A stretch of 64,000 nt of DNA, from IMG/VR virus record IMGVR_UViG_3300020050_009836, positions 19,861 through 83,860 of that record; one strand, given 5' to 3'. Below are positions 13,729 to 39,891 of this stretch, one piece after another (within the stretch, counting starts at the first letter, position 1; every line of letters begins with the position of its first letter). Origin of the DNA: a virus (taxonomy: Duplodnaviria; Caudoviricetes). The position numbers and the translations under genes were made by a program. The notes under the pieces are model-generated. The model was not told the origin of the DNA, made no database searches, and saw only the letters and a program-made list of their open reading frames with translations.

Positions 13729-15090
13729 TTACGAAGCAGCCGTAATCAGACCAACGATAGGACCCGGCTGGCGAAGAGCCGCAGTTGACGAAGCGTTTCC
13801 AACGTCATGGACGTTGATATCGTAACGCTGTGTACCACGGAGGGTCAGTTCGTCGGTCGTGAAGGCAGCATGCTCGGAAAGAGCAAGCGTAACGTCACGG
13901 CGGTCACCAAGCATGGAACCAAGGCGAAGGTCGCCAAGGAGACAACATACCTGTGAGTTAGCCTCATCCTTAGGCATGACCTGTGCAAACTCCACTGGAT
14001 AACCCATGAAGTATTGGCGTGGGATGCCGTTGATGATTTCGGTCGAAGTAACACCACCGGTTGCTTCAGCCAACTTACACATGACCTCATGGTAGAAGGA
14101 GCGGTGAACAATCCACCGTGCACCAGCACCGTCAGCGTACTGTGGAAGACGACCGATAACCTTGCGGAAGTCGGACAGAATCAACTCGGAGTAAGCGTTT
14201 CCGGTTCCAACTACGAGACCAGCGATATTAGCGATGGTTCCGTCAAGACCCTTGATTTTCTCACGGACACCGACGATACCGCCGTATGTGGAGGTGCCGT
14301 CGCCGTTGAAACCAGCGTTGTCTTCAGCGTTTGCAAATGCATATGCGATTTCGTCGGAAACCGTGTTTGCAATTTCAATCGTGGAGTCTTCGTTGAGTTC
14401 AGCAGTCAACTTAGCAATAACGCCAAGCTTCTTGGTTACCAAGCGAACACGGTCCCAGTTGAGTTCGGACTCGTTGATGGTTGCGCCTTCTCCAACGTAG
14501 AACGCTGTCAAGCCACCCTTACGGCGTGGACGGGACTGCGTGTCAGAGGTCATTGGGACAACACGGGTCAGACGGCGGAACACACCATACTGCTCACGGA
14601 GGTCGATGAGGTCGTTGAGGAACTCTTCAGGAACAAGGAATCCACCGACTTCGTTCTCGAACTCGTTGTGACCCTTGATTTCAATTCCACGCTCACGGCA
14701 CCATGTTGCTGCCTTAGCATTTCCAGCAGGTCCACCAAGGAACCACTGTCCAAAGCGGTAAGCCTTGAGTGCGCGCTCCTGTTGCGTAGCACCAGCAAAG
14801 TTGGTAACACGGTTGCCAGCAGGGAGGCGGAGTGCCTTCATTGCATCAACTTCAGCACGGTCAGCAGCAGACTTTACTGCTGGTTCTGGCTTAGGTGCTT
14901 CGTATGGAAGTGCATTTGTCTCGGAGATGGAGCGCAGGGACTTGATACGGAGGGAAATGCCTTCATTCTCTTCAATCAAAGTTGCGGCATCTGCCGGGTC
15001 AAGGTTCATGTCTGCGAGAATAGCCTGAGCGGTAGCCTTGTTGGCTTCCATCTTGGACTCAAGCGAGTTGATACGGGAAATAATATCCAT
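13729..15090 (-). CDS. major capsid protein, HK97 fold
   Basis: GGFLVPEEF, KKLGVIAKLTAEL.EDS, F.GDG and DLRLG..LGDR motifs; coiled delta-domain N-terminus. Confidence 0.93.
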   Translation of the reverse strand: MDIISRINSLESKMEANKATAQAILADMNLDPADAATLIEENEGISLRIKSLRSISETNALPYEAPKPEPAVKSAADRAEVDAMKALRLPAGNRVTNFAGATQQERALKAYRFGQWFLGGPAGNAKAATWCRERGIEIKGHNEFENEVGGFLVPEEFLNDLIDLREQYGVFRRLTRVVPMTSDTQSRPRRKGGLTAFYVGEGATINESELNWDRVRLVTKKLGVIAKLTAELNEDSTIEIANTVSDEIAYAFANAEDNAGFNGDGTSTYGGIVGVREKIKGLDGTIANIAGLVVGTGNAYSELILSDFRKVIGRLPQYADGAGARWIVHRSFYHEVMCKLAEATGGVTSTEIINGIPRQYFMGYPVEFAQVMPKDEANSQVCCLLGDLRLGSMLGDRRDVTLALSEHAAFTTDELTLRGTQRYDINVHDVGNASSTAALRQPGPIVGLITAAS

Positions 15091-16840: not shown

Positions 16841-17737
16841 TCACGCTTGTTCAGAATTGTCTTCGTCTACAGTTAGTAATACATTTAGTGAATCACCTTT
16901 CAACCACTTTGCGTACCTGCCGTCACCAAGGACGGACTTCGCTTCGTAGGTTGGCAGTAATTCGAAGGCTTCATCCGCTGATTTAATGGACTTCACTTCT
17001 TCTGCAACATCATTTAAATAAAACAACGGAACACACTTGCAACCACTTCCGTGAGTCGTAAACGAACTAGTTAAATTAATATCTGTTCCGTGTACAAACC
17101 AGCATTCTGCTTTTGTCGTCACGTCGCAAGGGGTAACCGTCACACATTTGACGTTCTTGTCCCTTATAGTCAAGCGGACTACATCAGTAAAGATGTTTTT
17201 TGCAGCTTCAGTAAACACAGAAATTATATTGGATACAAAGTCTTCATCTGCATCAGCAATAGCCGACATAATTAATTCATGTGGTTGACTAAATGAAATA
17301 TTGTTTGCTGCCCTAGCATTGTCAACTATAGTTTCTATTTCACATTCCATCTGATAGTCAAGTTCAGGCGTAAATAGTTGCTTCAGGAAGTCACTTGCTT
17401 CTTCTTCACTGATTAACTGCTTGCCATTAAGCACTTCAGAACTTTCATTTAGTTCTTCAATAATCAGAGTCGCAAGAGATGACTTCGTTTCATCAAACTT
17501 ATCAAGCATCAGACTAGCGGTCGTGACAACTATGGTTTGCAGTCTACGCAAAAGTATTGCTGATGTCTGGGCATCAAGACCACTCATTTTAACCATAGTG
17601 CCGATGGCGTCAATAGACTCTCGTTGTTTTTTAAATTTATCTTTGAGTTGTTTGACTGTGCGGTTTACGCTCTGGTCGTACTCATCACTCAAACTTCTCA
17701 TGATGAGTAGTGCTTCATCTACACGTTCCGTGCTCAT
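16841..17737 (-). CDS. minor head protein, MuF/gp7-like (degenerate)
   Basis: Between portal and protease; C..HG...HGSGCKC resembles the MuF HPNCRC motif. Confidence 0.5.
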   Translation of the reverse strand: MSTERVDEALLIMRSLSDEYDQSVNRTVKQLKDKFKKQRESIDAIGTMVKMSGLDAQTSAILLRRLQTIVVTTASLMLDKFDETKSSLATLIIEELNESSEVLNGKQLISEEEASDFLKQLFTPELDYQMECEIETIVDNARAANNISFSQPHELIMSAIADADEDFVSNIISVFTEAAKNIFTDVVRLTIRDKNVKCVTVTPCDVTTKAECWFVHGTDINLTSSFTTHGSGCKCVPLFYLNDVAEEVKSIKSADEAFELLPTYEAKSVLGDGRYAKWLKGDSLNVLLTVDEDNSEQA

Positions 17738-19503
17738 TTACCTTCACGCTCTTTCATGATGCGGTCACGAATCTTTTTACTCCAAGATGCGCCAGCGTCA
17801 CCGCCCCACAAGTCCCATGCAACCCGTCCCTTGCTCGGAAAGCCATCTTGACCACTATTGAATCCAGTAGCCTGTTTATCAACTTCGTGTCGTGAGAAGA
17901 ATGAATACATGCGAAGGACAGTGCTCTCGGACAGACTCTCGCCATTCACTAACTGGTTGGCACGTGTCAAACCAATTATTGTCCCACCGGACTTGCCTTC
18001 TTTTTTCCACTGAAGTGCACGTCTGGCAGCGGATTGCATGCCAGACGTTGGCTTATAACCTTCAGCCTTTACTTCTTCTAGTTCAACTTCTGTTGCTTTT
18101 TGTTCTGGCTGGGGCGTTGGAGGTGTGGTTGGCGGCTCCGGCTGTACCGGTGGTTCTGTTGGTGTTTCGGGTGGCGTTGCGTTTGCTTCGACGCCCACTC
18201 CAGTCTGAGAGTTGATGCCTTCATCTTCACTTCTTGCTACCTCTCCAATCATCTTTCTGGCTTCAGCCTTATCGATGATTCCAGCAGCATACAGTGTTGT
18301 TGCTCTTGATACACGAAGCGATTCATCCTCTTGGAGTGCTGGTACTTCAGTATTGTCAAAAGCTACGATGTCATCTTCCTGCAAGTCAGTGTACTCAGGA
18401 ATCATCGCCATGGTGATTTGAGCACATAGTTGTTCTTGCAGAGGAATCATTCCATCTTCCCATGCAGCACGACGTGCTTCAGCATAGTTAGAGTAAGTAT
18501 TCCTCTCAAGTCCTGCACCAAGCCCCAGAACCATACAGTTCAATCCTAAGGCTGATGCAATTCTTTCTTCTGGTTTACGTCGTAGTTCATCAAGGCTTAA
18601 TTCAGCCGGTGACATCGACATCCTACTGATGGAGTAAGGCGCAGTAGATACTGCAATACCACCTGCATTGTCTCCGCAGAAATCTTCTTGTAAACGCTTT
18701 TTGAGGACTCGTGCATCCTCTTCCATGATTTCAACCATCATGTCACCAGAAGCTGGACCCACCATCAAGGACGGCATTGCGTTGTTCTTGAGAAGTGAAT
18801 AACTGACAGTGGAACTCTGGTTGTCTGCGGCAACTTCTTTTAGGACGGATGCTATCGTTGAGCGACCAACACGGATATCCATCGGGTCACGTAAATACCG
18901 CCAATGAATGATGTCTTCAGATGCTATGTCGTACTGGACTCCATCCACCATGTAGATGTACTCTTTTACGATAAGTTCAGGCTCACCCTTTGGGGTAACC
19001 ATGTCACACGGCAAGAACTGTAAGTAAACAACTTCACTACGGCGACCACCCTTGCGAACTTTTCGTGCATAGGCATTGCCTTGCAATTTCAAGTCCTGCG
19101 TAATCCATCCATAGAATGTGTTCGCCGGTACTCCCGGTGACGGATTTCTAAGAAGAGTCAGTAGTGGGTGTGTGTCGATAAGTTCAAACTTGTCAGATTT
19201 TGTATCCTGAACATTACGTTGAATTACCAACTTGCCTACATTTAGATTTCGGATATACCAATCAAGCCCGATGGCAATAATAGAGTTGAGACCAAGGTCA
19301 CCAGCCTCTTTTGCCCAATCAAGTTTGCTCGATGGTAGTTTGGTTGTGATGATGCTTTCAAGCCCACCGTTACCTGCACGTGCAACGGCACGGGTACGGT
19401 TTCGCGGCTGTGGAGCCTCAGCACTTGGGCGTAGAGTGACTTTTACTTCATCTTTACCCGTTAGGGCTAACCAAGCGTCAGAGAACCTGCTTAACAAGCC
19501 CAT
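17734..19503 (-). CDS. portal protein (HK97-like) with Pro-rich linker and extra C-terminal domain
   Basis: HPLL.LL.NP, LQGNAY, IIHWRY..P...G.S, NNAMPS, IASALG and YSNY.EA motifs. Confidence 0.9.
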   Translation of the reverse strand: MGLLSRFSDAWLALTGKDEVKVTLRPSAEAPQPRNRTRAVARAGNGGLESIITTKLPSSKLDWAKEAGDLGLNSIIAIGLDWYIRNLNVGKLVIQRNVQDTKSDKFELIDTHPLLTLLRNPSPGVPANTFYGWITQDLKLQGNAYARKVRKGGRRSEVVYLQFLPCDMVTPKGEPELIVKEYIYMVDGVQYDIASEDIIHWRYLRDPMDIRVGRSTIASVLKEVAADNQSSTVSYSLLKNNAMPSLMVGPASGDMMVEIMEEDARVLKKRLQEDFCGDNAGGIAVSTAPYSISRMSMSPAELSLDELRRKPEERIASALGLNCMVLGLGAGLERNTYSNYAEARRAAWEDGMIPLQEQLCAQITMAMIPEYTDLQEDDIVAFDNTEVPALQEDESLRVSRATTLYAAGIIDKAEARKMIGEVARSEDEGINSQTGVGVEANATPPETPTEPPVQPEPPTTPPTPQPEQKATEVELEEVKAEGYKPTSGMQSAARRALQWKKEGKSGGTIIGLTRANQLVNGESLSESTVLRMYSFFSRHEVDKQATGFNSGQDGFPSKGRVAWDLWGGDAGASWSKKIRDRIMKEREGK

Positions 19504-21773: not shown

Positions 21774-22344
21774 TGATGAACTAGTACCGATTGATTTATC
21801 GGTTCCTGAATCAAGAGACTCTATCAAGGAAGAATTATCTGCTCCACTTTTTGATGAGTACCACGCACGACGTCAAGCAGTGATGAGTTCGAAACGACCT
21901 GACGGCAAAGCCTATGGCGGAACTCCTCTATCAATTGACGATACCAAGATGAAAGTTATCTTGGATGCAATCCTTGCCGGAGCATCGCACTCTGTAGCGG
22001 CTCAAGTCGCTGGTGTGCCTGTCAGGAGGCTCAAGGACTGGATAGTACGTGGTGAGAGTGGTGACATGGATGTCCCTACAGAACTCGTCGAATTTGCACG
22101 TCGTGTACGCATGGCTGAAAGCCGTGGTGAGTTAGGACTTATTGTCCGTATACGTCGTGCTGCGGAAGAAAACTGGGGTGCCGCCGCTTGGCTACTAGAA
22201 AGACGACATAGCAAGCGTTGGGGCAAAAAAACTACTGTTGATGTGAGGCAAATGACAGATGAGCAAATTACAAGACTCCTTACGGCAGAAGCTGATGGAG
22301 GAAGCGATACGGCGGGGATTGAGGATTCCGGGGACGACGAGTGA
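21766..22344 (+). CDS. terS: terminase small subunit
   Basis: HTH (AAQVAGV...DW), W.AAAWLLERR...WG motif, directly upstream of terL. Confidence 0.7.
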   Translation: MDDDELVPIDLSVPESRDSIKEELSAPLFDEYHARRQAVMSSKRPDGKAYGGTPLSIDDTKMKVILDAILAGASHSVAAQVAGVPVRRLKDWIVRGESGDMDVPTELVEFARRVRMAESRGELGLIVRIRRAAEENWGAAAWLLERRHSKRWGKKTTVDVRQMTDEQITRLLTAEADGGSDTAGIEDSGDDE

Positions 22345-23710
22345 TATCTACAACCCTTATAGGGATGGTATTGAGAAAGGCTCGATGGAGTCTTTTCATG
22401 AGTATCTAAAACTTACACTCCCAAAGGGATGGACTGCTGACCCAGCGCATATCAAGTTAATTGCTGAACACCTTGATGCAGTTGACCGTGGACAGATTGA
22501 CCGACTGGCAATCTCAATGCCCCCTAGACATGGCAAAACCGAAACTACTACAGTTCGTTACGGGGCATATGCGTTTGAAAAGAATCCTAGGGACAACGTC
22601 CTTGTAACTGCATATAACGAACGTATCGCACGTAGGTTTAGTCGTAAGGCAAGAGTAATCGTTGAATCACGTCGCCAACTCATGACCAGTAGTCGTGCTG
22701 CTGATGAATGGGGAATGCCTGAAGGCGGCACCTTTATGAGTCGTGGTGTTGGTTCTCCACCTACCGGTGTAGGTTTCAAGAGAATCATCATCGATGACCC
22801 TATCAGGCGACGTGAAGACGCTGAAAGCATCAACCTGCGTGAAAAGGCTTGGGACTGGTTTACTGACGATATCTACACTCGTCTTGAACCCGGTGGAGCC
22901 ATGATTATCGTTGCTACACGTTGGCATCATGATGACATCACAAGCCGTGCCATTGAGTCCGAGCCAAACAAATGGGTTGTCCTAAAACTTCCGGCTATTG
23001 CGGAAGAGGCTGACCAACTAGGACGGCAACCGGGTGAGTCTCTGTGGCCTGAGCGTTATTCAGTTGAAGACTTGATGCGTATCAAAGCGGTCATGCTTCA
23101 AAACGAAGGAGAGTACGGCTGGCAAGCACTGTATCAGCAATCTCCAACACAACGTTCGGGTGCGATGATTCGTCAAGACCGTATCTCTACTTTCCAAGAA
23201 CTGCCTCTGTCAGTTGGAAGATTCCGCAGAGTTATCAGGGCTTGGGACTTGGCATCGACACGTGGTGCAGGTGACTATACGGTTGGAGTTAAGGGTGCTC
23301 TCGATAACATCGGACGCTTCTGGATACTCGATGTAGTCATTGGTCAGTTCGATGTGGATGAGCGTGACAACATCATTTACAGGACTGCCGAGATGGATGG
23401 TAAAGATGTCACCATACGGCTCCCACAAGACCCAGCACAGGCAGGAAAGAGTCAGGCTAGATACTTACTCAGAATGCTTCACGGGTACCGTGTGAGCATC
23501 CAAAGTCCAACAGGCAATAAGACGTTGAGGGCTGAGCCATTTGCGGCACAGGTAAACAACTTCAACGTCAATATGATAGCCGCCGCATGGAATCAACCTA
23601 TGCTCGATGAGTTCAGGCAATTTCCTATGGGGCGGCATGATGACATCGTTGATGCAACCGTAGATTGCTATGACGAATGTACGAAGAAGAGGACTATGTC
23701 TTTCGCCTAG
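22259..23710 (+). CDS. terL: terminase large subunit
   Basis: Walker A MPPRHGKT, Walker B IIIDDP, LYQQ.P, nuclease AWDLA...GDYTVG and HDDIVDA. Confidence 0.95.
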   Translation: MSKLQDSLRQKLMEEAIRRGLRIPGTTSDIYNPYRDGIEKGSMESFHEYLKLTLPKGWTADPAHIKLIAEHLDAVDRGQIDRLAISMPPRHGKTETTTVRYGAYAFEKNPRDNVLVTAYNERIARRFSRKARVIVESRRQLMTSSRAADEWGMPEGGTFMSRGVGSPPTGVGFKRIIIDDPIRRREDAESINLREKAWDWFTDDIYTRLEPGGAMIIVATRWHHDDITSRAIESEPNKWVVLKLPAIAEEADQLGRQPGESLWPERYSVEDLMRIKAVMLQNEGEYGWQALYQQSPTQRSGAMIRQDRISTFQELPLSVGRFRRVIRAWDLASTRGAGDYTVGVKGALDNIGRFWILDVVIGQFDVDERDNIIYRTAEMDGKDVTIRLPQDPAQAGKSQARYLLRMLHGYRVSIQSPTGNKTLRAEPFAAQVNNFNVNMIAAAWNQPMLDEFRQFPMGRHDDIVDATVDCYDECTKKRTMSFA

Positions 23711-29584: not shown

Positions 29585-30157
29585 ATGAATCTTCCAGACA
29601 AAAAATACGACATCGTACTGATGGACCCGCCTTGGTACTACGGCAACAAGACAGGTATGGGTGCTGCGGAAAACCATTACAGGACAATGAAAGATGCCGA
29701 TTTGATGGCTCTTGATGTCCCGTCTTTACTAAAGCCTACTTCTGTAGTATTTTGCTGGGCTACAGGTCCACGCTTAGATTTTGCAATGCAGTTGATGGCT
29801 CATTGGGGACTTTATTATCGTGGCATGTCTTTCGTCTGGGTAAAAACAACCAAAGCTGGTGTGCCGATAGGTGCAAAAGGAATTTCCCCAACAATCGTAA
29901 AGTCTAACTGTGAATTTGTGCTGGGATGCTCTTTGACAAAAAAGGGGAGACCTATGCCAATAGCAGACATGAAAGTCCCGCAGGTTGTCATGTGGGCGCC
30001 ACAAGAGCACAGTAAGAAGCCAGAAGAGATACACCAACGTATTGAACGCCTGTATCCAGATGCGACAAAGTTAGAGATGTTTGCTCGTCGCCCATACAAG
30101 GACTGGGATGTTTGGGGAAACGAAGTTGGATACATAACAGAAGAGGCTCCTGAATAG
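29585..30157 (+). CDS. MT-A70 family adenine methyltransferase
   Basis: KYD.V..DPPW.Y, HY.TM, F.WAT, WG..Y...FVWVK, HS.KPEE and LEMFAR motifs. Confidence 0.92.
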   Translation: MNLPDKKYDIVLMDPPWYYGNKTGMGAAENHYRTMKDADLMALDVPSLLKPTSVVFCWATGPRLDFAMQLMAHWGLYYRGMSFVWVKTTKAGVPIGAKGISPTIVKSNCEFVLGCSLTKKGRPMPIADMKVPQVVMWAPQEHSKKPEEIHQRIERLYPDATKLEMFARRPYKDWDVWGNEVGYITEEAPE

Positions 30158-30169: not shown

Positions 30170-30569
30170 ACTTCGTGTATGGTTTATCCCATTCAGGGTC
30201 TAGGAAGTAGTGTCTTCGACCGACATAGAACAGTTGACCGGTTGGACCGCAACCCTCTGCTCTCCAAGTGCCGTCTGAATATCGTTCAATCGTAAGACTG
30301 ATTCCTTTAGTGTCACGAACCATTGTCGCCACACCGTTTTTCATAACAACCTTATCTGACTGAATTACGAGTTTGGCATATCCAGTTTTCAGATTGATAG
30401 GGAAAGTCTTTACAATCGTATAAGGATATAAGTCGGTATAAAGAACTTCGGTTACACCAGTAAACCTATCTGCCTTCAATGGACCACACTCTTTTGCTAA
30501 AGTAATGTTCCGTGCAGAACCATAGTACGAGTCAACCCACTCAAAAATTGGTTCGACATTATTTGTCAT
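30168..30569 (-). CDS. hypothetical phage protein
   Basis: 133-aa ORF, coupled. Confidence 0.7.
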   Translation of the reverse strand: MTNNVEPIFEWVDSYYGSARNITLAKECGPLKADRFTGVTEVLYTDLYPYTIVKTFPINLKTGYAKLVIQSDKVVMKNGVATMVRDTKGISLTIERYSDGTWRAEGCGPTGQLFYVGRRHYFLDPEWDKPYTK

Positions 30570-31216
30570 TATTCACTAAAACCTTTTTCAACCACATCAC
30601 ACCATGTCTTATCAGCAGCATCTGCCAATGCTTTTTGAGTTGGTTCGTGTGCGGCAATCTTTACTAGAAACGGACCGCCACCCCATTCTGCGACATGAAT
30701 GTTCTTTACAGCCAGTTCATTTGAGAAATCATTTGTACCAACATTGTCGTGGTACAAGATTAGGTGCATTTCATTGATACCTAATACCAACAACTGATAC
30801 TGCATTTGATTGTAGACAGACTGTGAGATTGACTTACTGTTTTTGTAGTCAGATACATATCTGAATCCGCACTTGCACTCAAGGGCAAACACTTCTCCGG
30901 TATCGGATATATGTAAGCCGTCAAGTGATACACGGCGCCAAGGGTGCTCTATCGATTGTATGCATTCTGGCTCAAACTTACGTTCAAGCTTCTCTTCAGC
31001 AATAGCACGTGCATAAGGCTCAAGAATATGACCAAGTTGCATTGCTTGCGTTGATGGACTACTAGCCGTATCAACAGCTTGCAGTTTTTCACTAATGAAC
31101 CGAGCCTTACTACCGGGCGTCAGTAGACGCCCGGCTTCAGTGGCAGTTATCCCGCCTTTTCTCCAGTTCAACCACTCCTCTGTACCTTGTTCCATGGCTA
31201 TCACCGTGAAATTCAT
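30569..31216 (-). CDS. YqaJ-like (lambda-exo family) exonuclease
   Basis: EWL.WRK.GITATE, GH.LEP, SLDG, LECK and Q.QYQL motifs. Confidence 0.9.
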   Translation of the reverse strand: MNFTVIAMEQGTEEWLNWRKGGITATEAGRLLTPGSKARFISEKLQAVDTASSPSTQAMQLGHILEPYARAIAEEKLERKFEPECIQSIEHPWRRVSLDGLHISDTGEVFALECKCGFRYVSDYKNSKSISQSVYNQMQYQLLVLGINEMHLILYHDNVGTNDFSNELAVKNIHVAEWGGGPFLVKIAAHEPTQKALADAADKTWCDVVEKGFSE

Positions 31217-32556: not shown

Positions 32557-32868
32557 ATGACATTCAGCGAAATTACTAAGTACGTAACTGAGGGCAGAAC
32601 TGTATATAGAACGTCAACACCAGAAGAACTTTACTTCATATTTTCTGGTCGCATAGCGAACGTTGTTCTGTTTACAGCAGAGACTGAGTATCTGCCTGAG
32701 CCGGGTCTTGGTTACTGTGCTTACACGCAAGACGCAGATGGGATGGAATACAAGATTCTCTCCGACTGGCAACTATCAGCGGAAATGCTCTTAGCCGAAG
32801 ATTGGGAAATCGTGCCAGAGATGCTCCTTGAATGGGGTGGAGAAGACAAGTCAAAGCTTGAACAATGA
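32557..32868 (+). CDS. DUF2829/Tad2-like protein
   Basis: MTF.E.....EG..V.R ... LS.EMLLAEDWEIV. Confidence 0.6.
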   Translation: MTFSEITKYVTEGRTVYRTSTPEELYFIFSGRIANVVLFTAETEYLPEPGLGYCAYTQDADGMEYKILSDWQLSAEMLLAEDWEIVPEMLLEWGGEDKSKLEQ

Positions 32869-33497
32869 CAATACACGACATATTGATTCCACTTGAGTTG
32901 GGATTGTTTTGTAGGCGTAAATCAGAGCCGGAATACTACTACTTTGTATATGATGGCAAAAACTATAACCGTCAAGTCGGGCTTGCACCAGAAGATGGAC
33001 GACCAGCACTAGGTAAGGGATATAAGATATCCGCATATCCAGTGTTGCTTGATGGCTACAACGGATACAGCCTTGAAGACTGGGAGCCATCGGAATATGA
33101 CGCCATCCAGATAGATTGGGAAGTTCCAGCCATAGATATGGTTCTTCCTGATGCACCGGTTGAAACTCAAGTAGAAGAGAAAAAACAACTAAAGCGTTTA
33201 GACGTATCGAAGCCAATACTCAAACGACCAGAACGTCAAGTTGAGCCTGATTCAGGTATCGACTTTGACACTTCTCTGATACACATCAAGCATGGCGGGA
33301 TAATTGAAGCACCAATTTATGGTGATGGTGATGTGCTGGCTAAGCAGTACTACCTCTTCAATTTGCAGACACTGATGACACGAGACCGCCTCTACGATAA
33401 GAAGTACACGCCTTGGGTTGCATACACATGGGTTGATTCAGATTTCACGTGTATGAACTATAGGCTACTTGCAGCAAAGGACAGAAATGACACCTAA
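32865..33497 (+). CDS. DUF2829/Tad2-like N-terminal domain plus C-terminal extension
   Basis: MTIHDIL..LELG...RRK ... SLEDWE. Confidence 0.45.
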   Translation: MTIHDILIPLELGLFCRRKSEPEYYYFVYDGKNYNRQVGLAPEDGRPALGKGYKISAYPVLLDGYNGYSLEDWEPSEYDAIQIDWEVPAIDMVLPDAPVETQVEEKKQLKRLDVSKPILKRPERQVEPDSGIDFDTSLIHIKHGGIIEAPIYGDGDVLAKQYYLFNLQTLMTRDRLYDKKYTPWVAYTWVDSDFTCMNYRLLAAKDRNDT

Positions 33498-33720
33498 GAA
33501 ACGTTACTACTATTTCATCAAAGCAACGGGCTACAATGACGAAAAAGCGTACACGATGACCACGAAAGCCAAGTACCAGATATGCGAACTGATAAAAAAG
33601 GGCATCTCTCCGGTAACTGTGTACAGAGCTGATGTCACTGACTTAGAGAATCTAGAGCAGGTTGCTGTTTGCGATGAGAAGTGGTGGGCTGATTACTTGC
33701 AAGGGAAACGTGGATGGTGA
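33487..33720 (+). CDS. hypothetical protein
   Basis: Coupled ORF. Confidence 0.6.
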   Translation: MTPKKRYYYFIKATGYNDEKAYTMTTKAKYQICELIKKGISPVTVYRADVTDLENLEQVAVCDEKWWADYLQGKRGW

Positions 33721-34103
33721 TTACACTCCTAACAACTGGTCAAAAAGACGAGATGAAGACTGCCTTTACAGAGGAAGTCGTTGCAGTGCTGCATACAAAT
33801 ACAGAGACTACTGCTGAGCTTTACTTCGGTGACTACTCTTGTGTGGTCACTAAAGCATATGTCACAGACATTGAATCGGATGACCGGAACTGGGAAGAGG
33901 GAATCATCAAGTACAAACTTATCTATGACAATGGACATATGGAGTCAGATATGTCTGGTCGGTTCGTAGGTAAGTATCTGGCGCACATGGCAAATCCGGA
34001 AGTCTACGTACAAGAGAAGTTTGACTGGATTTACACTAGGCTCATAAACAAGATTCTGACGAGTGCTGACTGTTGCCAGCATTACGACGAACTAGATTAT
34101 TAA
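33714..34103 (+). CDS. hypothetical protein
   Basis: Coupled ORF. Confidence 0.65.
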   Translation: MVITLLTTGQKDEMKTAFTEEVVAVLHTNTETTAELYFGDYSCVVTKAYVTDIESDDRNWEEGIIKYKLIYDNGHMESDMSGRFVGKYLAHMANPEVYVQEKFDWIYTRLINKILTSADCCQHYDELDY

Positions 34104-34141
34104 TAGTTGACAAACTTCATGTAAAGTGGTAAAACACTTAC

Positions 34142-34414
34142 ATGCAACAAAACAACAACAACAATACACCGCTCTGGTTCATAGGTGGATTACTACTTGG
34201 TGGTACCAACCTTGCATCATCGGTGTTTTTGCTTTTCGGTCTTATCTGTGCCGTATTTGTATTCATGCTTGGCTCATTTCTGAGTGCCCTAACATTTGCC
34301 ATCGTTACGCACTGGAAATCGCTTCTACTGTATGTTGTCATTGGCCTTATCTTTACGTTCCTTGGTCACATCTACATGCTTGAGGAAAAGAAGAAATATG
34401 AAAATAAAGGCTAA
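34142..34414 (+). CDS. membrane protein, possibly leaderless
   Basis: Hydrophobic; TTGACA-17-TAAAAC-6 nt-ATG. Confidence 0.65.
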   Translation: MQQNNNNNTPLWFIGGLLLGGTNLASSVFLLFGLICAVFVFMLGSFLSALTFAIVTHWKSLLLYVVIGLIFTFLGHIYMLEEKKKYENKG

Positions 34415-34733
34415 TTACCTTGCGCTTGAGTGCGACCAATATACGGCTTGCCATGTGTTAGTCATGCTTTATCAAGGGAGCGTTGAGTCTGAGTATATTA
34501 GGCTGACTATCACTGACATCCTATCCAACGATGTCGGGTTGGCTCCACTTGAAATCTACCCAGTCATCGATGATGAAAAAGAACTGTACACAGTACGAAT
34601 GAGACTGCGTGGAGTGGAAGAAATCAAGACCTATTCATACACGCAGATGAATAAGATGTTAAACAACAGACTTATCCCGTTCTGGATGACTGAGATTGAC
34701 AAGTGCGTAGAGTCGATGAAGGGGCTAAACTGA
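34398..34733 (+). CDS. hypothetical protein
   Basis: Coupled ORF. Confidence 0.6.
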   Translation: MKIKANYLALECDQYTACHVLVMLYQGSVESEYIRLTITDILSNDVGLAPLEIYPVIDDEKELYTVRMRLRGVEEIKTYSYTQMNKMLNNRLIPFWMTEIDKCVESMKGLN

Positions 34734-34972
34734 TGACTCTGGAAGAGGCGTTGTTTTGGTTGCGGGATGGAAAACTAGTTGTATCCAAAAAGATGATGAT
34801 GCGGTTCCGTATGGAAAAGCGACCAGTATCACTTGGCGGAAGGCAGAAGCAGTACTGGTTTATTGACTTCCAGCATTGTGGGACGAAATTTCCAGAGGAG
34901 TGGATACGGTGGCACAGTGCCAACGATGACTTCTTTGATTTGATAAACGATGATACTTGGGAGTTGGAATGA
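34733..34972 (+). CDS. DUF2829/Tad2-like protein
   Basis: MTLEEAL..LRDGK.V ... DL..DDTWEL. Confidence 0.55.
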   Translation: MTLEEALFWLRDGKLVVSKKMMMRFRMEKRPVSLGGRQKQYWFIDFQHCGTKFPEEWIRWHSANDDFFDLINDDTWELE

Positions 34973-35160
34973 CTATTGCAGAACTAATGCCACAACTAGA
35001 AGAAGGGCTTGTCATAAAGACAGCCACACATAGACTCAGAAAGGGAGTTGTTTCCTATGAGTGGACTAACGTTGGCTTGCCAGATATCTGGTGGCCATTC
35101 TTGTGTCCATTGTCAATGGTAGACATAACAACTGACTGGGAAGTAGAGGAAACAGTATGA
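34969..35160 (+). CDS. DUF2829/Tad2-like protein
   Basis: MTI.ELM..LEEG ... S..DITTDWEV. Confidence 0.55.
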   Translation: MTIAELMPQLEEGLVIKTATHRLRKGVVSYEWTNVGLPDIWWPFLCPLSMVDITTDWEVEETV

Positions 35161-35432
35161 CGTTCACTGAATCTTTGGCTCACTTACTGAAAGGTGAAGT
35201 CATGAGGCGTTACGAAGATAACGTAGAGTATAGATTTTGGTTCAACAAGGAAACACGCACGGGTATGTGTGAGTACCACGCAGACAAATTTGCAAGCATG
35301 TGGTACATCAGCATCGAAGATATCCTTGATGAAAGTTGGGACTTTGCTATCCCAGAAGACAAAGAACGCATCCTAAACAAGTACTCTGATGCATCAAAAT
35401 ACATCCTTGGCTCACGTATCACTAAACGATAG
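35157..35432 (+). CDS. DUF2829/Tad2-like protein
   Basis: MTF.ESL..LLKG..MRR ... S.EDIL.ESWD. Confidence 0.55.
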   Translation: MTFTESLAHLLKGEVMRRYEDNVEYRFWFNKETRTGMCEYHADKFASMWYISIEDILDESWDFAIPEDKERILNKYSDASKYILGSRITKR

Positions 35433-35439
35433 TCATTCA

Positions 35440-35511
35440 GGCTCTATAAGTAAAAGGTCATACTAGGGGACTCATAATCCCTCTTTGATAGTTCGAGTCT
35501 ATCTGGAGCCA
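35440..35511 (+). tRNA. tRNA with CAT anticodon (Met or Ile2), no encoded CCA
   Basis: Folded by hand: acceptor GGCTCTA/TGGAGCC plus A73, D stem AGTA/TACT, anticodon arm GGGGA-CTCATAA-TCCCT, T arm GATAG-TTCGAGT-CTATC. Confidence 0.88.
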
Positions 35512-35552
35512 CTAACACAAAGCACCTCACTGGTGCTTTTTTCTTTTTACTA

Positions 35553-35581
35553 TTGACAAACATTCAACCTTGATGTAAAGT
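35553..35581 (+). promoter_or_regulatory. promoter of a leaderless mRNA
   Basis: TTGACA-17-TAAAGT-6 nt-ATG (35588). Confidence 0.75.
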
Positions 35582-35587
35582 GAACAT

Positions 35588-35779
35588 ATGAAATTCACTG
35601 ATGTAGTTAATGCATTGATAGCCGGAAAGCGGGTCAGGCGAACAGCTTGGCATCGAGTAGGCAGTTATATAACGTGTGATTTTGAGCAGATGACTATGTA
35701 CGTCGGTGGAGTTGTTAGTGCATTTAGCCCAAACAAGGTTTCATTGATTGCTGATGATTGGGAGGTGCTAGATGACTAG
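35588..35779 (+). CDS. DUF2829/Tad2-like protein
   Basis: MKF.DV..AL.AGKRVRR.AW ... P....LIADDWEV. Confidence 0.7.
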   Translation: MKFTDVVNALIAGKRVRRTAWHRVGSYITCDFEQMTMYVGGVVSAFSPNKVSLIADDWEVLDD

Positions 35780-36116
35780 TGAAGAGTTAGTTGATGCTTT
35801 ACTTGACGGTAAAACTTTGACCCATAGTTTCTTTGGGAGAAACGGTCGTGTCCACGTACTGCATGATGCAGAAGAGGGTGGCAGACATCACCGGTTAGTT
35901 GTTGTTTATAAAGACAACGAACTAGGTTGGAGTAGAGAAACCTATAAAGAGTCCATTGCTAGGTCAAAGCCAGAGAGTTTCTTGAAGCATATCTACATCG
36001 ATACTCTAAACCTACACCGTGACAACGTCATGATGATACGTGAACAGTACTGGATGCTCAAGGATGCATATTGTGAGTCAGGTTGGTCAATCTGTGAGCC
36101 TACAGATGGAGTTTAG
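35772..36116 (+). CDS. divergent DUF2829/Tad2-like protein (tentative)
   Basis: MTSEELVDALLDGK N-terminus only. Confidence 0.35.
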   Translation: MTSEELVDALLDGKTLTHSFFGRNGRVHVLHDAEEGGRHHRLVVVYKDNELGWSRETYKESIARSKPESFLKHIYIDTLNLHRDNVMMIREQYWMLKDAYCESGWSICEPTDGV

Positions 36117-36372
36117 AGCCAAGCCGTCTGGTTGCAAGTACTTGTCAAAGAAAGACCAAGAAGCAATCAGGTTTGCTATGAACTACTTCAGGGAGAACCC
36201 AACGGAACTTTCTTGTACGTTGTACGAAGTGCTGCCTGATGGAACTGAACAGATAGTTGGAAATATCCCAAATCCTAAGTTTGAGAAATTAGAAGAGAAC
36301 GTTATGCGGCTCATGTCCATATACACGCACTTTAAGAAAAAGGGTGAACCAACACCAGAAGTGTGGCAATAA
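36106..36372 (+). CDS. hypothetical protein
   Basis: Coupled ORF. Confidence 0.55.
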   Translation: MEFRAKPSGCKYLSKKDQEAIRFAMNYFRENPTELSCTLYEVLPDGTEQIVGNIPNPKFEKLEENVMRLMSIYTHFKKKGEPTPEVWQ

Positions 36373-36373
36373 A

Positions 36374-36604
36374 ATGACACTACATGAAATAACTCCATCT
36401 GTGACAAAAGGTTTGCCATTCCGGCGCACTGTTTGGGCTGAAGGAATCTACTACTACTACGACATCAATGAGTCGTGGTTCTTAAAGCAAAGGCTTGTTG
36501 ATGGGGACGAATATGAACTCATCACGTATACACTTGACCTTACACTTGAAGACTTGATGGCTACTGACTGGGATGTTGATGACTGGGGCGATGAAAATGA
36601 ATAG
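36374..36604 (+). CDS. DUF2829/Tad2-like protein
   Basis: MTL.EI....KG..FRR..W ... T.EDLMATDWDV. Confidence 0.7.
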   Translation: MTLHEITPSVTKGLPFRRTVWAEGIYYYYDINESWFLKQRLVDGDEYELITYTLDLTLEDLMATDWDVDDWGDENE

Positions 36605-36809
36605 TTTTGAAGCGATGGAAGCACTTCGTGAAGGACGCAAAGTCAGATTTATTTGGTGGCCTGACGAGAACTACATCATTAGGGTAAACGACGATATCAA
36701 GGGTTTTCCGGATACCTTTGATACATACATCCAAGAGAATCCTTGGCGAGTCATATGGCTAGTCTTTGATACTGCTCACGACTCTAGCCTTTGGCAAGAA
36801 AAAGATTAA
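36597..36809 (+). CDS. DUF2829/Tad2-like protein
   Basis: MNSFEAMEALREGRKVR..WW. Confidence 0.55.
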   Translation: MNSFEAMEALREGRKVRFIWWPDENYIIRVNDDIKGFPDTFDTYIQENPWRVIWLVFDTAHDSSLWQEKD

Positions 36810-37091
36810 ATGAAACTAATACTTACACACCGTGTATACACTCACGACGACGGAACAATCACAGACAGATACGACGCTGTTGGTGACAGTAAAGATGCCG
36901 AGTTGGTCATCCATGGGTTCAAAATAGACTATGATGTGTGGCGTCCACTAGACTCTGAACTAGAGTTTTTTATCCGCCAGATTGTTACTGACCCAGAAAG
37001 ACCAAATCGCACAATCGTTGATGAAACGGGTAAGTGCGCCACAGTCAATGTACACAAAAAAGTCAAGTCAGTAACCATCGAGTGGGAGTAG
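36810..37091 (+). CDS. hypothetical protein
   Basis: ORF in the operon. Confidence 0.65.
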   Translation: MKLILTHRVYTHDDGTITDRYDAVGDSKDAELVIHGFKIDYDVWRPLDSELEFFIRQIVTDPERPNRTIVDETGKCATVNVHKKVKSVTIEWE

Positions 37092-37198
37092 ATATTTATC
37101 CACTGAGTGGATAGAATCTATCCATAGAACCTATCAAGCCTCTACATATGCTCAAACCGATAGGTCCCTATGCCCGTATCTTATCTCCCAACCTACAA

Positions 37199-37230
37199 AC
37201 CCGAATGGCTTGCTGTTCGGGTATTTTTTT
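37199..37230 (+). terminator. intrinsic terminator
   Basis: ACCCGAA..TTCGGGT followed by A-T7. Confidence 0.65.
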
Positions 37231-37322
37231 CGTGGTAGTATCAGGTTGCCACCGAAAGGTGAGCTTTGAAAGGCTAGAAAACTCCTCTTCTTGCCCGACA
37301 AATTCGGACTCTGCAAAACCGA

Positions 37323-37351
37323 AAGACCAGTTTCACAGACTGGTCTTTTTT
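37323..37351 (+). terminator. intrinsic terminator
   Basis: AAGACCAGT..ACTGGTCTT-TTTT. Confidence 0.7.
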
Positions 37352-37388
37352 GTTTGTATACCTATGATGAAAATATACTTTTATATCG

Positions 37389-37418
37389 TTGACAACGGAA
37401 AACCAATGGATGTATAAT
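37389..37418 (+). promoter_or_regulatory. sigma70-type promoter
   Basis: TTGACA-18-(TG)TATAAT. Confidence 0.75.
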
Positions 37419-37461
37419 TGTTATGTAAGGGAGATATCCAAGGACATCTTTAAGGGACTAC

Positions 37462-37701
37462 ATGATAGATATTGCATTCGACCCTATATGGGCACTAAAG
37501 CACGGATACACGATTGTTAGCGAGTATGAAAACGGTGCGATAAACGAGTACAAGATTATTGAAGGGCAACTTATGTCCAAGTCTTCGTTTTTGTTATTTG
37601 ATGGAGACCGCACTGGTGACGATTACTTTCGTCCATGCCTTCATCTCAAGCTTGGTGTAAACGCTAAGTATTCACTCGTACCAGCAGAGGCAGCATTTTG
37701 A
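37462..37701 (+). CDS. hypothetical protein (possibly distant DUF2829-like)
   Basis: WALKHGYTIV loosely matches the family N-terminus. Confidence 0.5.
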   Translation: MIDIAFDPIWALKHGYTIVSEYENGAINEYKIIEGQLMSKSSFLLFDGDRTGDDYFRPCLHLKLGVNAKYSLVPAEAAF

Positions 37702-37919
37702 CGATAGACGCAGCAATCAAAAGCATACTTGAAGGTAACAAGGTCGCAAACGAAGCCGACTTGACTTTCAAGGAAGTCTACTTCGATAAAGAGTCAAGAT
37801 ACTTCATCTACTCTATCCAAGGAGTCGAGTCCATGAGGGATAGGAATTTAGTACTGACGGTATCTGATTTGAAAAGCAAAGAGTGGAAAACTGTTGACAT
37901 TCGGACAAGCACTACATAG
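37698..37919 (+). CDS. DUF2829/Tad2-like protein
   Basis: MTIDAAIK.ILEG.KV ... T.SDL.S.EWK.V. Confidence 0.55.
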   Translation: MTIDAAIKSILEGNKVANEADLTFKEVYFDKESRYFIYSIQGVESMRDRNLVLTVSDLKSKEWKTVDIRTSTT

Positions 37920-38109
37920 TTTAAAAAACGGTTTTACTGTGACTCGCACATACGTTGAGTCCGACGCTGTTGTTGTTGTATTTTGTAAATTGACAAACAA
38001 CCAAAAACTGGTCAGAAAGAAAGTCACGACTAACTATCAGTCCGGCTGGAGGCATTCTGGCTGGTCACTGAAAGACTTGTCAGCAACCGACTGGATAGTC
38101 GCTGGTTGA
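37894..38109 (+). CDS. DUF2829/Tad2-like protein
   Basis: MTFGQAL..LK.G..V.R ... W.W S..DL.ATDWIV. Confidence 0.7.
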   Translation: MTFGQALHSLKNGFTVTRTYVESDAVVVVFCKLTNNQKLVRKKVTTNYQSGWRHSGWSLKDLSATDWIVAG

Positions 38110-38288
38110 CGACTGTAGAGGCGTAGGAGTACATCAATGCTGGCGGTCAAGTAAGACATGCCACGTGGTCAATGGATGTTTACGCATTCATGAAAGATGA
38201 TGTGCTCTACGTCACTAACGATGTCCACTCATGGAATTGTCCACCTCTAGAATTCTTCTCTAATAACTGGCAGATATATACAAAGTAA
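38106..38288 (+). pseudogene. DUF2829/Tad2-like gene with an in-frame TAG at codon 7
   Basis: Manual translation MTTVEA*EYINAGGQVRHATW...NNWQIYTK aligns with MTFEEAVKAMDNGSFVRRSGW. Confidence 0.65.
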
Positions 38289-38326
38289 GATACACTTGTC
38301 ATGAAAAGGGAAAAGGGGGAAGTGGA

Positions 38327-38701
38327 ATGGATTTCATAACTATCATCGGTTTGGTGTTTGGGCATTGGTTTGCCGACTTTGTACTACAGTCACGTAAGAT
38401 AGCAGAGAGTAAGTCGAGTAGCCTACGGTCACTGTTTACACATGTAGGCTTGTACACTACTGGTCTTGCTTGTGTGATGGGACCTATTCTCATCATGCAT
38501 CATAGTTGGAGGTTAGTGTTATCCTTCATCTTACTCAATGGCTTCTGCCATCTAGTCACTGACTTTGCTACATCTAAGATGTCGGCGCATGCTTGGCAGT
38601 CAGAGGATAAGAGCCAGTTCTGGAATATCATCGGCTTTGACCAGTCTATCCACTGGAGCCACTTGCTGATTACTTACTTCGGCTTCTTTGTGTGGGGTTA
38701 G
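38327..38701 (+). CDS. DUF3307-like membrane protein
   Basis: HW.ADF.LQ...K..L..HV..Y, H...D and IG.DQ..H motifs. Confidence 0.8.
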   Translation: MDFITIIGLVFGHWFADFVLQSRKIAESKSSSLRSLFTHVGLYTTGLACVMGPILIMHHSWRLVLSFILLNGFCHLVTDFATSKMSAHAWQSEDKSQFWNIIGFDQSIHWSHLLITYFGFFVWG

Positions 38702-38702
38702 T

Positions 38703-39170
38703 ATGTGGCCAAGTAACAGCGGCATAAAGCCAAGACCAAGTGACGAAGATATCTATAAACAAACAACTAAGCAAGTACTTGATAAGTTGGTGGAACTGCG
38801 AGAGAATCGACGTTCATATGAGTGGATAGCATGCTACATGTTTACCAACAACTACCAGTCGCCATATAAGCGCTGGAACGTGAAGTTAGTCAAGTCACTT
38901 CTTTGGTCTCATGGGTTTAAACGGGAAACAATGTACAAGGCTCCGGACTACCGATACTTACTACTCATTGAATCCTTGAAGGCTGATGGCGTGAGTGTTG
39001 ACGATATAGCCGAGCATCTAAACAGCCAAGGTAAGAAGACAGTAAATGGTAATCCGTTTACTGGAAGCTTGGTAAAGCAGTACGTTAGTCGTTACAACGG
39101 ACTCAAGGTCAAGTACGGTGACGATGTTGTTAGGTTTACGAAACCAGTGGAGGAAGACGATGACATTTGA
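38703..39170 (+). CDS. protein with two recombinase-domain-like HTH repeats, no catalytic domain
   Basis: L...G.S...IA..LN..G..T..G..F...LVK pattern occurs twice. Confidence 0.55.
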   Translation: MWPSNSGIKPRPSDEDIYKQTTKQVLDKLVELRENRRSYEWIACYMFTNNYQSPYKRWNVKLVKSLLWSHGFKRETMYKAPDYRYLLLIESLKADGVSVDDIAEHLNSQGKKTVNGNPFTGSLVKQYVSRYNGLKVKYGDDVVRFTKPVEEDDDI

Positions 39171-39414
39171 AGAAGCAGTAAAGGCTATGGATAACGGTTC
39201 CTTTGTCCGTAGGTCTGGATGGTCAAAGAACATCAAGTTGTACGCAGCCTATCCGACAGACGAACAAGATAAACGAGAGTTAAACAACAAGCGGCATATC
39301 TTTGCACAGATTGACTCATACGAGCCAGAATACGCCATCTTCCGTATATCGGACATCTATGGTGACGACTGGTATGTCATTGATGAGGACAACATTACAG
39401 ACAATGAGTTGTAA
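39160..39414 (+). CDS. DUF2829/Tad2-like protein
   Basis: MTFEEA.KA...G..VRR.GW ... SDI..DDW.V. Confidence 0.72.
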   Translation: MTFEEAVKAMDNGSFVRRSGWSKNIKLYAAYPTDEQDKRELNNKRHIFAQIDSYEPEYAIFRISDIYGDDWYVIDEDNITDNEL

Positions 39415-39691
39415 GTACAACGACAAACAACTGCGAGCAATGAGTCATGTATATAGTGCTCACCTAGTAAAAGGAAACGTCGGTGAAGGTGACTACTATC
39501 CATTGATGTATGGAGTGGAAAGCGTAGTCAACTTGGCTATGACTGAGAAGGGTGCCGCCTTTACTTACAGTAGGGGTGATTGGCACGTGATTTACATCCG
39601 TGACAAGAGGAAGTGGAAGGAAGACGAAGACTTTCTACTTACGGCTATCAAGGGTGATGCAGTGTTTTATCAAACGGAGGATGACAAATGA
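39404..39691 (+). CDS. hypothetical protein
   Basis: Coupled ORF. Confidence 0.55.
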   Translation: MSCKYNDKQLRAMSHVYSAHLVKGNVGEGDYYPLMYGVESVVNLAMTEKGAAFTYSRGDWHVIYIRDKRKWKEDEDFLLTAIKGDAVFYQTEDDK

Positions 39692-39891
39692 CATTTGGAC
39701 AGATTTACGGCGCACTGAAAAAGGGACGATGGGTTGGTCGCTCTAGCAAAGAGAGTGAACGGTTGTCGATTATGGATGGCAGAATCCTTACATCCGTTTG
39801 GGTTGATGAGAAGTTTGTTGTTTATGTCAATAGTGACGTAATGCTGACAGCAGATGATTTACTAGCCGAAGACTGGGTTGTCTACAACTAA
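39688..39891 (+). CDS. DUF2829/Tad2-like protein
   Basis: MTFGQ...ALKKG..V.R ... T.DDLLAEDWVV. Confidence 0.72.
   Translation: MTFGQIYGALKKGRWVGRSSKESERLSIMDGRILTSVWVDEKFVVYVNSDVMLTADDLLAEDWVVYN

Follow-up and report, generated by a model that had tools for sequence, protein, structure and literature searches.

A conserved tandem array of diverged Tad2-like genes in an uncultured tailed phage

Results

The stretch of DNA analysed here (the window, 64,000 nucleotides) comes from an IMG/VR virus record of 83,860 bp, complete according to CheckV, of which it covers bases 19861-83860; its sequence identifies the source as a tailed phage, uncultured and of about 84 kb. Between positions 32557 and 39891 the plus strand carries approximately 24 small genes, tightly packed and in many cases with overlapping stop and start codons. 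By motif, 14 of these genes, encoding proteins of 63-210 amino acids (aa), are Tad2-like, and they are interleaved with about ten unrelated small genes. The 14 share an N-terminal M-T-x-x-(E/D/Q)-(A/I/L), a glycine at exactly residue 13 and a tryptophan a few residues before the C-terminus. An earlier sequence-only reading of this DNA had reported repeated small open reading frames (ORFs) with such a motif, and they are present, all on the plus strand. The paralogues are approximately 20-30% identical to one another (21-30% to the reference copy, 39160, in alignment A1), and 13 of the 14 are acidic, copy 11 being the sole basic one (isoelectric point 9.8). Together with the comparisons given below, these data show a tandem expansion of the Tad2-like fold that is old, conserved and still changing, and that is specific to one lineage of uncultured ~84-kb tailed phages. 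The copies are listed in Table 1 and are referred to by number or by start position.

The assignment to the DUF2829/Tad2 family, which the sequence-only reading had proposed, was borne out by several profile comparisons. Four copies (1, 6, 11 and 13) exceed the curated gathering cut-off of 25 bits for PF11195 (Tad2-like/DUF2829). Four others match below it, with E values of 0.00026-0.028 (the N-terminus of copy 2, and copies 5, 8 and 14), and the six remaining copies have no Pfam match. The 83.9-kb genome has 1185 six-frame ORFs, and from these a profile iterated on its own copies recovered all eight that Pfam matches; the sole other match of this profile, marginal and confined to the early rounds, was the TAG-interrupted copy 12. 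The profile of the eight copies matched HgmTad2/AcrIIA7 (E 1.3e-7) and SPO1 Tad2 (E 2e-6) in the PDB, and also ModTad2 and SptTad2. Searched against 1.84 billion representative proteins, the eight-copy profile returned 591 relatives at E <= 0.001, and a deep profile was rebuilt on the domains of the best 150 of these and run on the same 1185 ORFs. All eight Pfam-matched copies then scored E <= 3e-11, and copies 9, 10, 12 and 3 were added at the values given in Table 1. The best ORF outside the array had an E value of 0.19; 34969 and 35772 are not significant on this profile alone.

Pairwise profile alignment with hhalign gave 96% for 37698, 38106 and 36597, and it aligned only the first 19-27 residues of 34733 (92%), 34969 and 35772. 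With a profile of the N-terminus only, 34733 and 34969 (E 0.14) both ranked above all ORFs outside the array, and 35772 fell in the noise. The region's 44 plus-strand ORFs supplied 14 of the top 16 deep-profile matches among the 1185; for ranks 13-16 they supplied two of four, for which the chance probability is 0.008. A chance origin of the array signal is excluded on these sequence statistics, and the profile search of the 1185 ORFs found no Tad2-like copy elsewhere in the genome. By sequence we count 12 supported copies (11 intact and one with a nonsense codon) and one deletion remnant, with 34969 a borderline member and 35772 a possible one by its N-terminal helix only. The 13-15 copies first claimed were thus slightly generous, and a fair estimate. 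For the eight core copies we hold the family and fold assignment to be nearly certain.

The structural fit to the Tad2 fold comes from copy 39160. Its AlphaFold2 model, built on a 62-sequence alignment, has a predicted local distance difference test score (pLDDT) of 89 and a predicted template modelling score of 0.77, and comprises an N-terminal helix, strands, a short middle helix, two strands, a short helix and a last strand. In a Foldseek search of the PDB, all 23 matches at E <= 0.001 were Tad2 chains (SPO1, ModTad2, SptTad2, HgmTad2/AcrIIA7), and their template modelling (TM) scores were 0.64-0.73 when normalised to the query and at most 0.82 when normalised to the target; beyond them, the best match had an E value of 0.065. 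The scores against SPO1 Tad2 chain 8smf_H were 0.73/0.82.

The other copies differ in what can be said of each. The C-terminal ~95 aa of copy 2 may be a second, degenerate Tad2-like domain: copy 37894 matches residues 139-199 of the L001 orthologue of copy 2 (L001 is the related phage described below) with a BLAST E value of 2e-7 in a small database, a hint to which hhalign, at 21% only, lends no support. Copy 3 has no Pfam match, and its protein-language-model neighbours include PF11195 clusters at 0.90. Homologue searches with 34969 and with 35772 returned orthologues of the same phage clade only (close ones for 35772), none of them Pfam-annotated. The C-terminal half of 35772 is predicted to be helical, and its AlphaFold model, from five close orthologues, was unusable (pLDDT 46). 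Copy 9, also without a Pfam match, matches PHROG 6670 (E 0.004), the same PHROG family as copy 39160.

Table 1. Features of the array and of the rest of the window, in window coordinates, with the corresponding protein or position in the related phage L001 (dN and dS, nonsynonymous and synonymous divergence)
Feature	Position	Strand	Support	In L001
Copy 1, 103 aa, Tad2-like, long middle insert, without Trp21	32557..32868	+	PF11195 33.8 bits, E 5e-8; deep profile E 7e-22	L001:2335-2637, 66% identity
Copy 2, 210 aa, residues 1-87 Tad2-like	32865..33497	+	PF11195 15.6 bits, E 0.025; deep profile 4e-14	
Copy 3, 79 aa, weakly supported Tad2-like	34733..34972	+	deep profile E 0.038; N-terminal sub-profile 0.0014	84% identity
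Copy 4, 63 aa, borderline; C-terminus T-D-W-E-V	34969..35160	+	deep profile 0.28; hhalign first 22 residues 89-91%	dN/dS 0.23
Copy 5, 91 aa, Tad2-like	35157..35432	+	PF11195 15.4 bits, E 0.028; deep profile 3e-12; hhalign 98%	
Copy 6, 63 aa, minimal Tad2-like, Trp21 kept	35588..35779	+	PF11195 36.4 bits, E 7.5e-9	
114-aa gene, Tad2-like N-terminal helix only	35772..36116	+	hhalign first 26-27 residues, 62-69%; deep profile 1.0; no Pfam match	dN/dS 0.15
Copy 8, 76 aa, Tad2-like, Trp21 kept	36374..36604	+	PF11195 21.1 bits, E 5e-4; deep profile 2e-13	
Copy 9, 70 aa, diverged Tad2-like	36597..36809	+	deep profile 9e-6; hhalign 96%, first 30 residues	no clear partner
Copy 10, 73 aa, TTG start, diverged Tad2-like	37698..37919	+	deep profile 0.014; hhalign 96%, residues 1-67; no Pfam match	71% identity; dN/dS 0.12
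Copy 11, 71 aa, TTG start, Tad2-like	37894..38109	+	PF11195 28.8 bits	87% identity
Copy 12, broken by in-frame TAG at codon 7 (38124-38126)	38106..38288	+	deep profile 0.025; hhalign 96%	L001:8896-9078, intact
Copy 13, 84 aa, best-supported Tad2-like copy	39160..39414	+	PF11195 35.8 bits; AlphaFold2 model	
Copy 14, 67 aa, Tad2-like	39688..39891	+	PF11195 21.9 bits; deep profile 5e-15	42% identity; dN/dS 0.41
17-codon remnant of a further Tad2-like copy	37364..37417	+	DNA alignment, sequence reading	L001:7992-8228, intact
tRNA-Met (CAT) inside the array	35440..35512	+	ARAGORN; Rfam tRNA 58.5 bits	L001:7679-7752
DUF3307 membrane protein, non-family gene within the array	38327..38701	+	PF11750 40.8 bits	kept
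MT-A70 family adenine methyltransferase	29585-30157	+	95 bits	
YqaJ-like exonuclease	30569-31216	-	56 bits	
Major head protein	13729-15090	-		
Portal	17734-19503	-		
Large terminase	22259-23710	+		

Two related phages carry the array. L001, which belongs to an 82.5-kb IMG/VR record, has 16 motif-bearing genes in an array of unchanged order (by the deep profile, 10 domains at >= 20 bits and 13 at >= 11 bits); three of these genes (6291, 6739 and 7992) are absent from the window. L002, a 5.1-kb contig of an NCBI assembly, holds the distal part in the same gene order. Thirteen of the 14 copies have orthologues in L001, from the least conserved (copy 14, the fastest-evolving) to the most (copy 11). 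Nonsynonymous divergence is 0.06-0.51. Synonymous divergence was 0.33 in one pair and 0.96-1.80 in a further nine; in four it could not be estimated because of saturation. The ratio dN/dS, which is rough given that dS is saturated in most pairs, lies at 0.07-0.41 where computable, the weakly supported copies included. Since the order is shared, and since the orthologues are diverged, with saturated dS and low dN/dS, the duplications are older than the divergence of these phages, and each copy has been kept for its own sequence.

The array is also changing, to judge from the same alignments. The frame from TTG 38106 (copy 12) has the family's N-terminal motif, an in-frame TAG, and then the conserved Trp21 and a C-terminal N-N-W. 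Its orthologues in L001 and at L002:1764-1961 are intact (60-65 aa). Recoding of TAG was considered and rejected: nine genes nearby end in TAG as an ordinary stop, and no suppressor tRNA is encoded in the genome. For these reasons copy 12 is either an error of sequencing or a nonsense mutant of recent date. The 17-codon remnant is the product of an internal deletion: of a Tad2-like gene that encodes 78 aa and is intact in L001, it retains the start and about 14 codons at the end. Copies are still being lost and gained: L001 has three that the window lacks, and in the window one copy carries a nonsense mutation and another an internal deletion.

A comparison sample of 80 viral loci (+/- 10 kb) with canonical Tad2, biased towards one large metagenome, was scanned with the same profile. 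One domain was found in 76-78 of these loci, two in 2-4 and more in none, in agreement with the earlier statement that phages usually carry one or two copies; at the same cut-offs the window has 9 domains (>= 20 bits) or 12 (>= 11 bits). Two unrelated phages, reached via non-canonical relatives, have a single copy each. Multiplication within one polypeptide does occur: among the best 150 of the 591 relatives there are 56 two-domain proteins, one four-domain protein (P0004, 296 aa, on a 115-kb contig) and one with five tandem domains (P0005, 711 aa, L012:10001-12136, on a Logan SRR33465400 contig). The contig of P0005 also encodes ParA, an S24 peptidase-type repressor and a DNA polymerase III beta clamp, a gene content that suggests a temperate phage or a phage-plasmid. 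A tblastn search of isolate phages with copy 35588 and P0040 gave no match, these queries being too short and diverged for a census, and our literature search found no publication on many Tad2 paralogues arrayed in one phage.

Promoters and terminators were located as matches to consensus patterns, which are not in themselves evidence of function; they suggest three apparent sigma-70-type transcription units. Unit 1 ends with the tRNA-Met, followed by a terminator-like hairpin and T-run at 35519-35539. Unit 2 extends from a promoter-like TTGACA-17-TAAAGT (35553-35581) to hairpins at 37199-37222 and 37321-37349, and unit 3 begins at a perfect TTGACA-N18-TATAAT promoter (37389-37418, 12/12 consensus matches). 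In L001 the 3' end of a Tad2-like gene contains this last promoter, which survived that gene's internal deletion in the window and sits there within the 17-codon remnant. The tRNA-Met of L001 stands before the 7992 copy and that of the window after copy 5; the two align poorly, and the window has fragments only at the position of the L001 tRNA. The non-coding stretch 37130-37350, which ends in two terminator-like hairpins and is conserved with L001:7840-7990 from ~37215 onwards, may be a small RNA; at 37130-37165 it matches the Rfam abiF RNA motif below threshold (34.2 bits, the cut-off being 37; E 0.004).

Genes of accessory type adjoin the array: the MT-A70 methyltransferase and the YqaJ-like exonuclease, both just upstream, the DUF3307 membrane protein and a helix-turn-helix protein. 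The DUF3307 gene has kept its place within the array in the window, in L001 and in L002. The right-hand 22 kb of the window (41300-64000) has very few ORFs longer than 130 aa. Megablast of the array region against isolate phages gave no match, and the large terminase shares no more than 41% identity with its counterpart in any isolate phage. The nearest relatives of the capsid (35-44% identity; L008-L011) lie on contigs of metagenome-assembled genomes labelled Pirellulaceae, Victivallales and Ignavibacteriales, which are probably mis-binned phage DNA and not informative on the host.

Discussion

We read the array as a diversified counter-defence kit of the sponge type, and put the probability of this reading at about 0.5. 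Tad2 homologues are described as inhibiting the antiphage systems CBASS (cyclic oligonucleotide-based antiphage signalling system), Pycsar (pyrimidine cyclase system for antiphage resistance) and Thoeris I/II/IV via two separate pockets (10.1101/2025.08.24.671296; 10.1101/2023.11.15.567273). The sponge kit is the most economical reading because the characterised members are all nucleotide sponges whose homologues have been retuned to varied signals. The constraint on the copies, their unusual number and their turnover also speak for it, as do the early-type promoter and terminator patterns and the acidity of 13 of the 14. Each copy would form a Tad2-like oligomer built of an alpha-1 helix with a sheet of five strands; pockets would differ between copies through the variable middle and the beta1-beta2 loop. 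Early in infection, the set as a whole would sequester a range of small immune signals, or small ligands of other kinds.

Several observations weigh against such a kit, most of them at the ligand pocket. In the published account (10.1101/2023.11.15.567273), glycocyclic ADP-ribose (gcADPR) and histidine-ADP-ribose (His-ADPR) are held by the G20-W21-N22-G23 loop and by S90/T92/D93 (HgmTad2 numbering), and mutation of W21/N22 or of S90/T92/D93 abolishes binding. The PDB profile-match alignments place the same G-W-N-G-K loop and W-x-x-S-x-x-D in SPO1 Tad2 and ModTad2. In the deep-profile alignment, none of the 14 copies has G-W-N-G, or even W-N-G, and S90, T92 and D93 are together in none; an equivalent of D93 is present in most, and those of S90 and T92 are not. 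W21 is found in only five copies (35588, 36374, 36597, 38106 and 39160), as against 88% of 165 related domains, and R18 in eight, as against 95%. The middle region, in which HgmTad2 has its cyclic-dinucleotide pocket, is very short in several copies (63-73 aa), and of the 14, 35772 is only a possible member and 34969 a borderline one. The nearest approaches to the canonical loop are in 39160 (G-W-S-K) and in 35157, which has the sole N22. Because this gcADPR/His-ADPR loop is absent, any ligands would not be bound in the manner of the solved sponges.

These losses have to be seen in the setting of the wider family. Its conserved residues (G13, R18, W21, D70, A73, D75 and W76) are present in 81-100% of the 165 related domains; in the array, G13 and the C-terminal tryptophan are kept in all 14 copies and D-W in eight. 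G-W-N-G occurs in only about 9% of the 165 full-length related domains, so that the canonical sponges are a minority of the family. Even for this wider Tad2-like family, the array is, by its sequences, unusually diverged. The array may have new ligand specificities, in keeping with the breadth that has been published for the family; functions other than that of a sponge would account for these data just as well.

A serious rival is that the array has reused the Tad2 fold not for sponges but for small, acidic proteins that bind host proteins (defence effectors, nucleases or transcription factors, for example) and inhibit or modulate them, each paralogue having its own target. The loss of the canonical ligand loop in all copies and of Trp21 in nine of 14 speaks for it, as does the acidity of nearly the whole set. 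A member of the family was first reported as the anti-CRISPR AcrIIA7, and its PDB name follows, but according to one report (10.1101/2023.11.15.567273) the anti-Cas9 activity was not reproduced, and every biochemically characterised member has been a nucleotide sponge. Copies 32557 and 39160 match weakly to PHROG 643, labelled 'transcriptional regulator', which is, however, an untested annotation. On balance we consider protein-binding inhibitors somewhat unlikely. Relaxed or decaying duplication, in which most copies would have no separate role and only one or two would be functional, could draw on the nonsense copy, the internal-deletion remnant and the frequent loss of family-conserved residues. 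The other copies, however, are open and their order is kept, dN against the relative is well below dS at saturated synonymous sites, and the broken copy 12 is intact in two relatives, which leaves decay hardly credible.

A different arrangement of the same genes would have the paralogues co-assemble into mixed tetramers with combinatorial pockets at the interfaces, giving a few hetero-oligomeric sponges in place of 12-14 separate ones. Both ligand pockets of the solved Tad2 tetramers are described as lying between protomers (10.1101/2023.11.15.567273), the overlapping stop and start codons of neighbours suggest coupled translation, and the multi-domain fusions among the relatives put unlike domains into one assembly. 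The gain and loss of single copies between relatives fits independent units better than obligate partners, and we regard mixed assembly as distinctly improbable. The boldest form of the sponge kit is a battery of a dozen mini-Tad2 sponges which, alone or in mixed tetramers, would cover many immune second messengers, some of them without a known sponge. We think it unlikely; were it true, this phage clade would be a natural library for new ligand specificities and perhaps for new bacterial signals.

Tad2 is one of the main known families of phage sponges, and a dozen conserved paralogues, all without the canonical loop, suggest that the fold is used far more broadly than in the characterised members, for new ligands or in a non-sponge role. 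The array is a compact set of 63-100-aa proteins, easily screened, and the orthologues in at least one related phage serve as conservation maps for choosing pocket residues.

Comparison with known Tad2 proteins

SPO1 Tad2 (Gp34.65; PDB 8SME/8SMF/8SMG and 8WJE) is the founding Thoeris anti-defence 2 sponge, of family PF11195. Eight copies of the array match the same family, and 39160 has the alpha-1 helix, the antiparallel sheet and the short helix before the last strand in common with it. Other shared traits are the N-terminal M-x-F-x-E-A-L...G13...R18, the C-terminal D-L-L-A-x-D-W, and a small, acidic product in an early-type gene context. SPO1 Tad2 is, however, described as a single gene of 89 aa, in contrast to the 12-14 diverged copies here, and it holds gcADPR with the G-W-N-G-K loop and W-x-P-S-Q-T-D, both of which the array copies lack.

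HgmTad2/AcrIIA7 (PDB 8KBI-8KBM and 8WJC) is the best PDB sequence match of the array profile; the structure of SptTad2 is 8WJD. As described, HgmTad2 has a 40-residue insert with a pocket for cyclic di-GMP (cGG) and cyclic GMP-AMP (cGAMP), together with the canonical gcADPR loop, whereas most array copies have shorter inserts, unrelated to it, and lack the loop. HgmTad2 and SptTad2 show that a variable middle insert can form a second (cyclic dinucleotide) pocket. In MoTad2/ModTad2 (PDB 9EIB and 8V3E) and the panel of Hadary et al. 2025, one fold has been retuned to His-ADPR, cyclic UMP and CMP (cUMP/cCMP), N7-cyclic ADP-ribose (N7-cADPR) and CBASS signals. The reading of the array as a diversified kit draws on this capacity of one Tad2 fold to be retuned to many signals; those proteins are single genes from different phages that were assayed one by one. 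A further parallel is with the metagenomic multi-domain Tad2-like proteins (P0004, P0005 and the two-domain proteins), in which the domain is likewise multiplied within one phage. There it is multiplied in a fused polypeptide, whereas the array consists of separate genes, with the 210-aa copy 2 as a possible exception.

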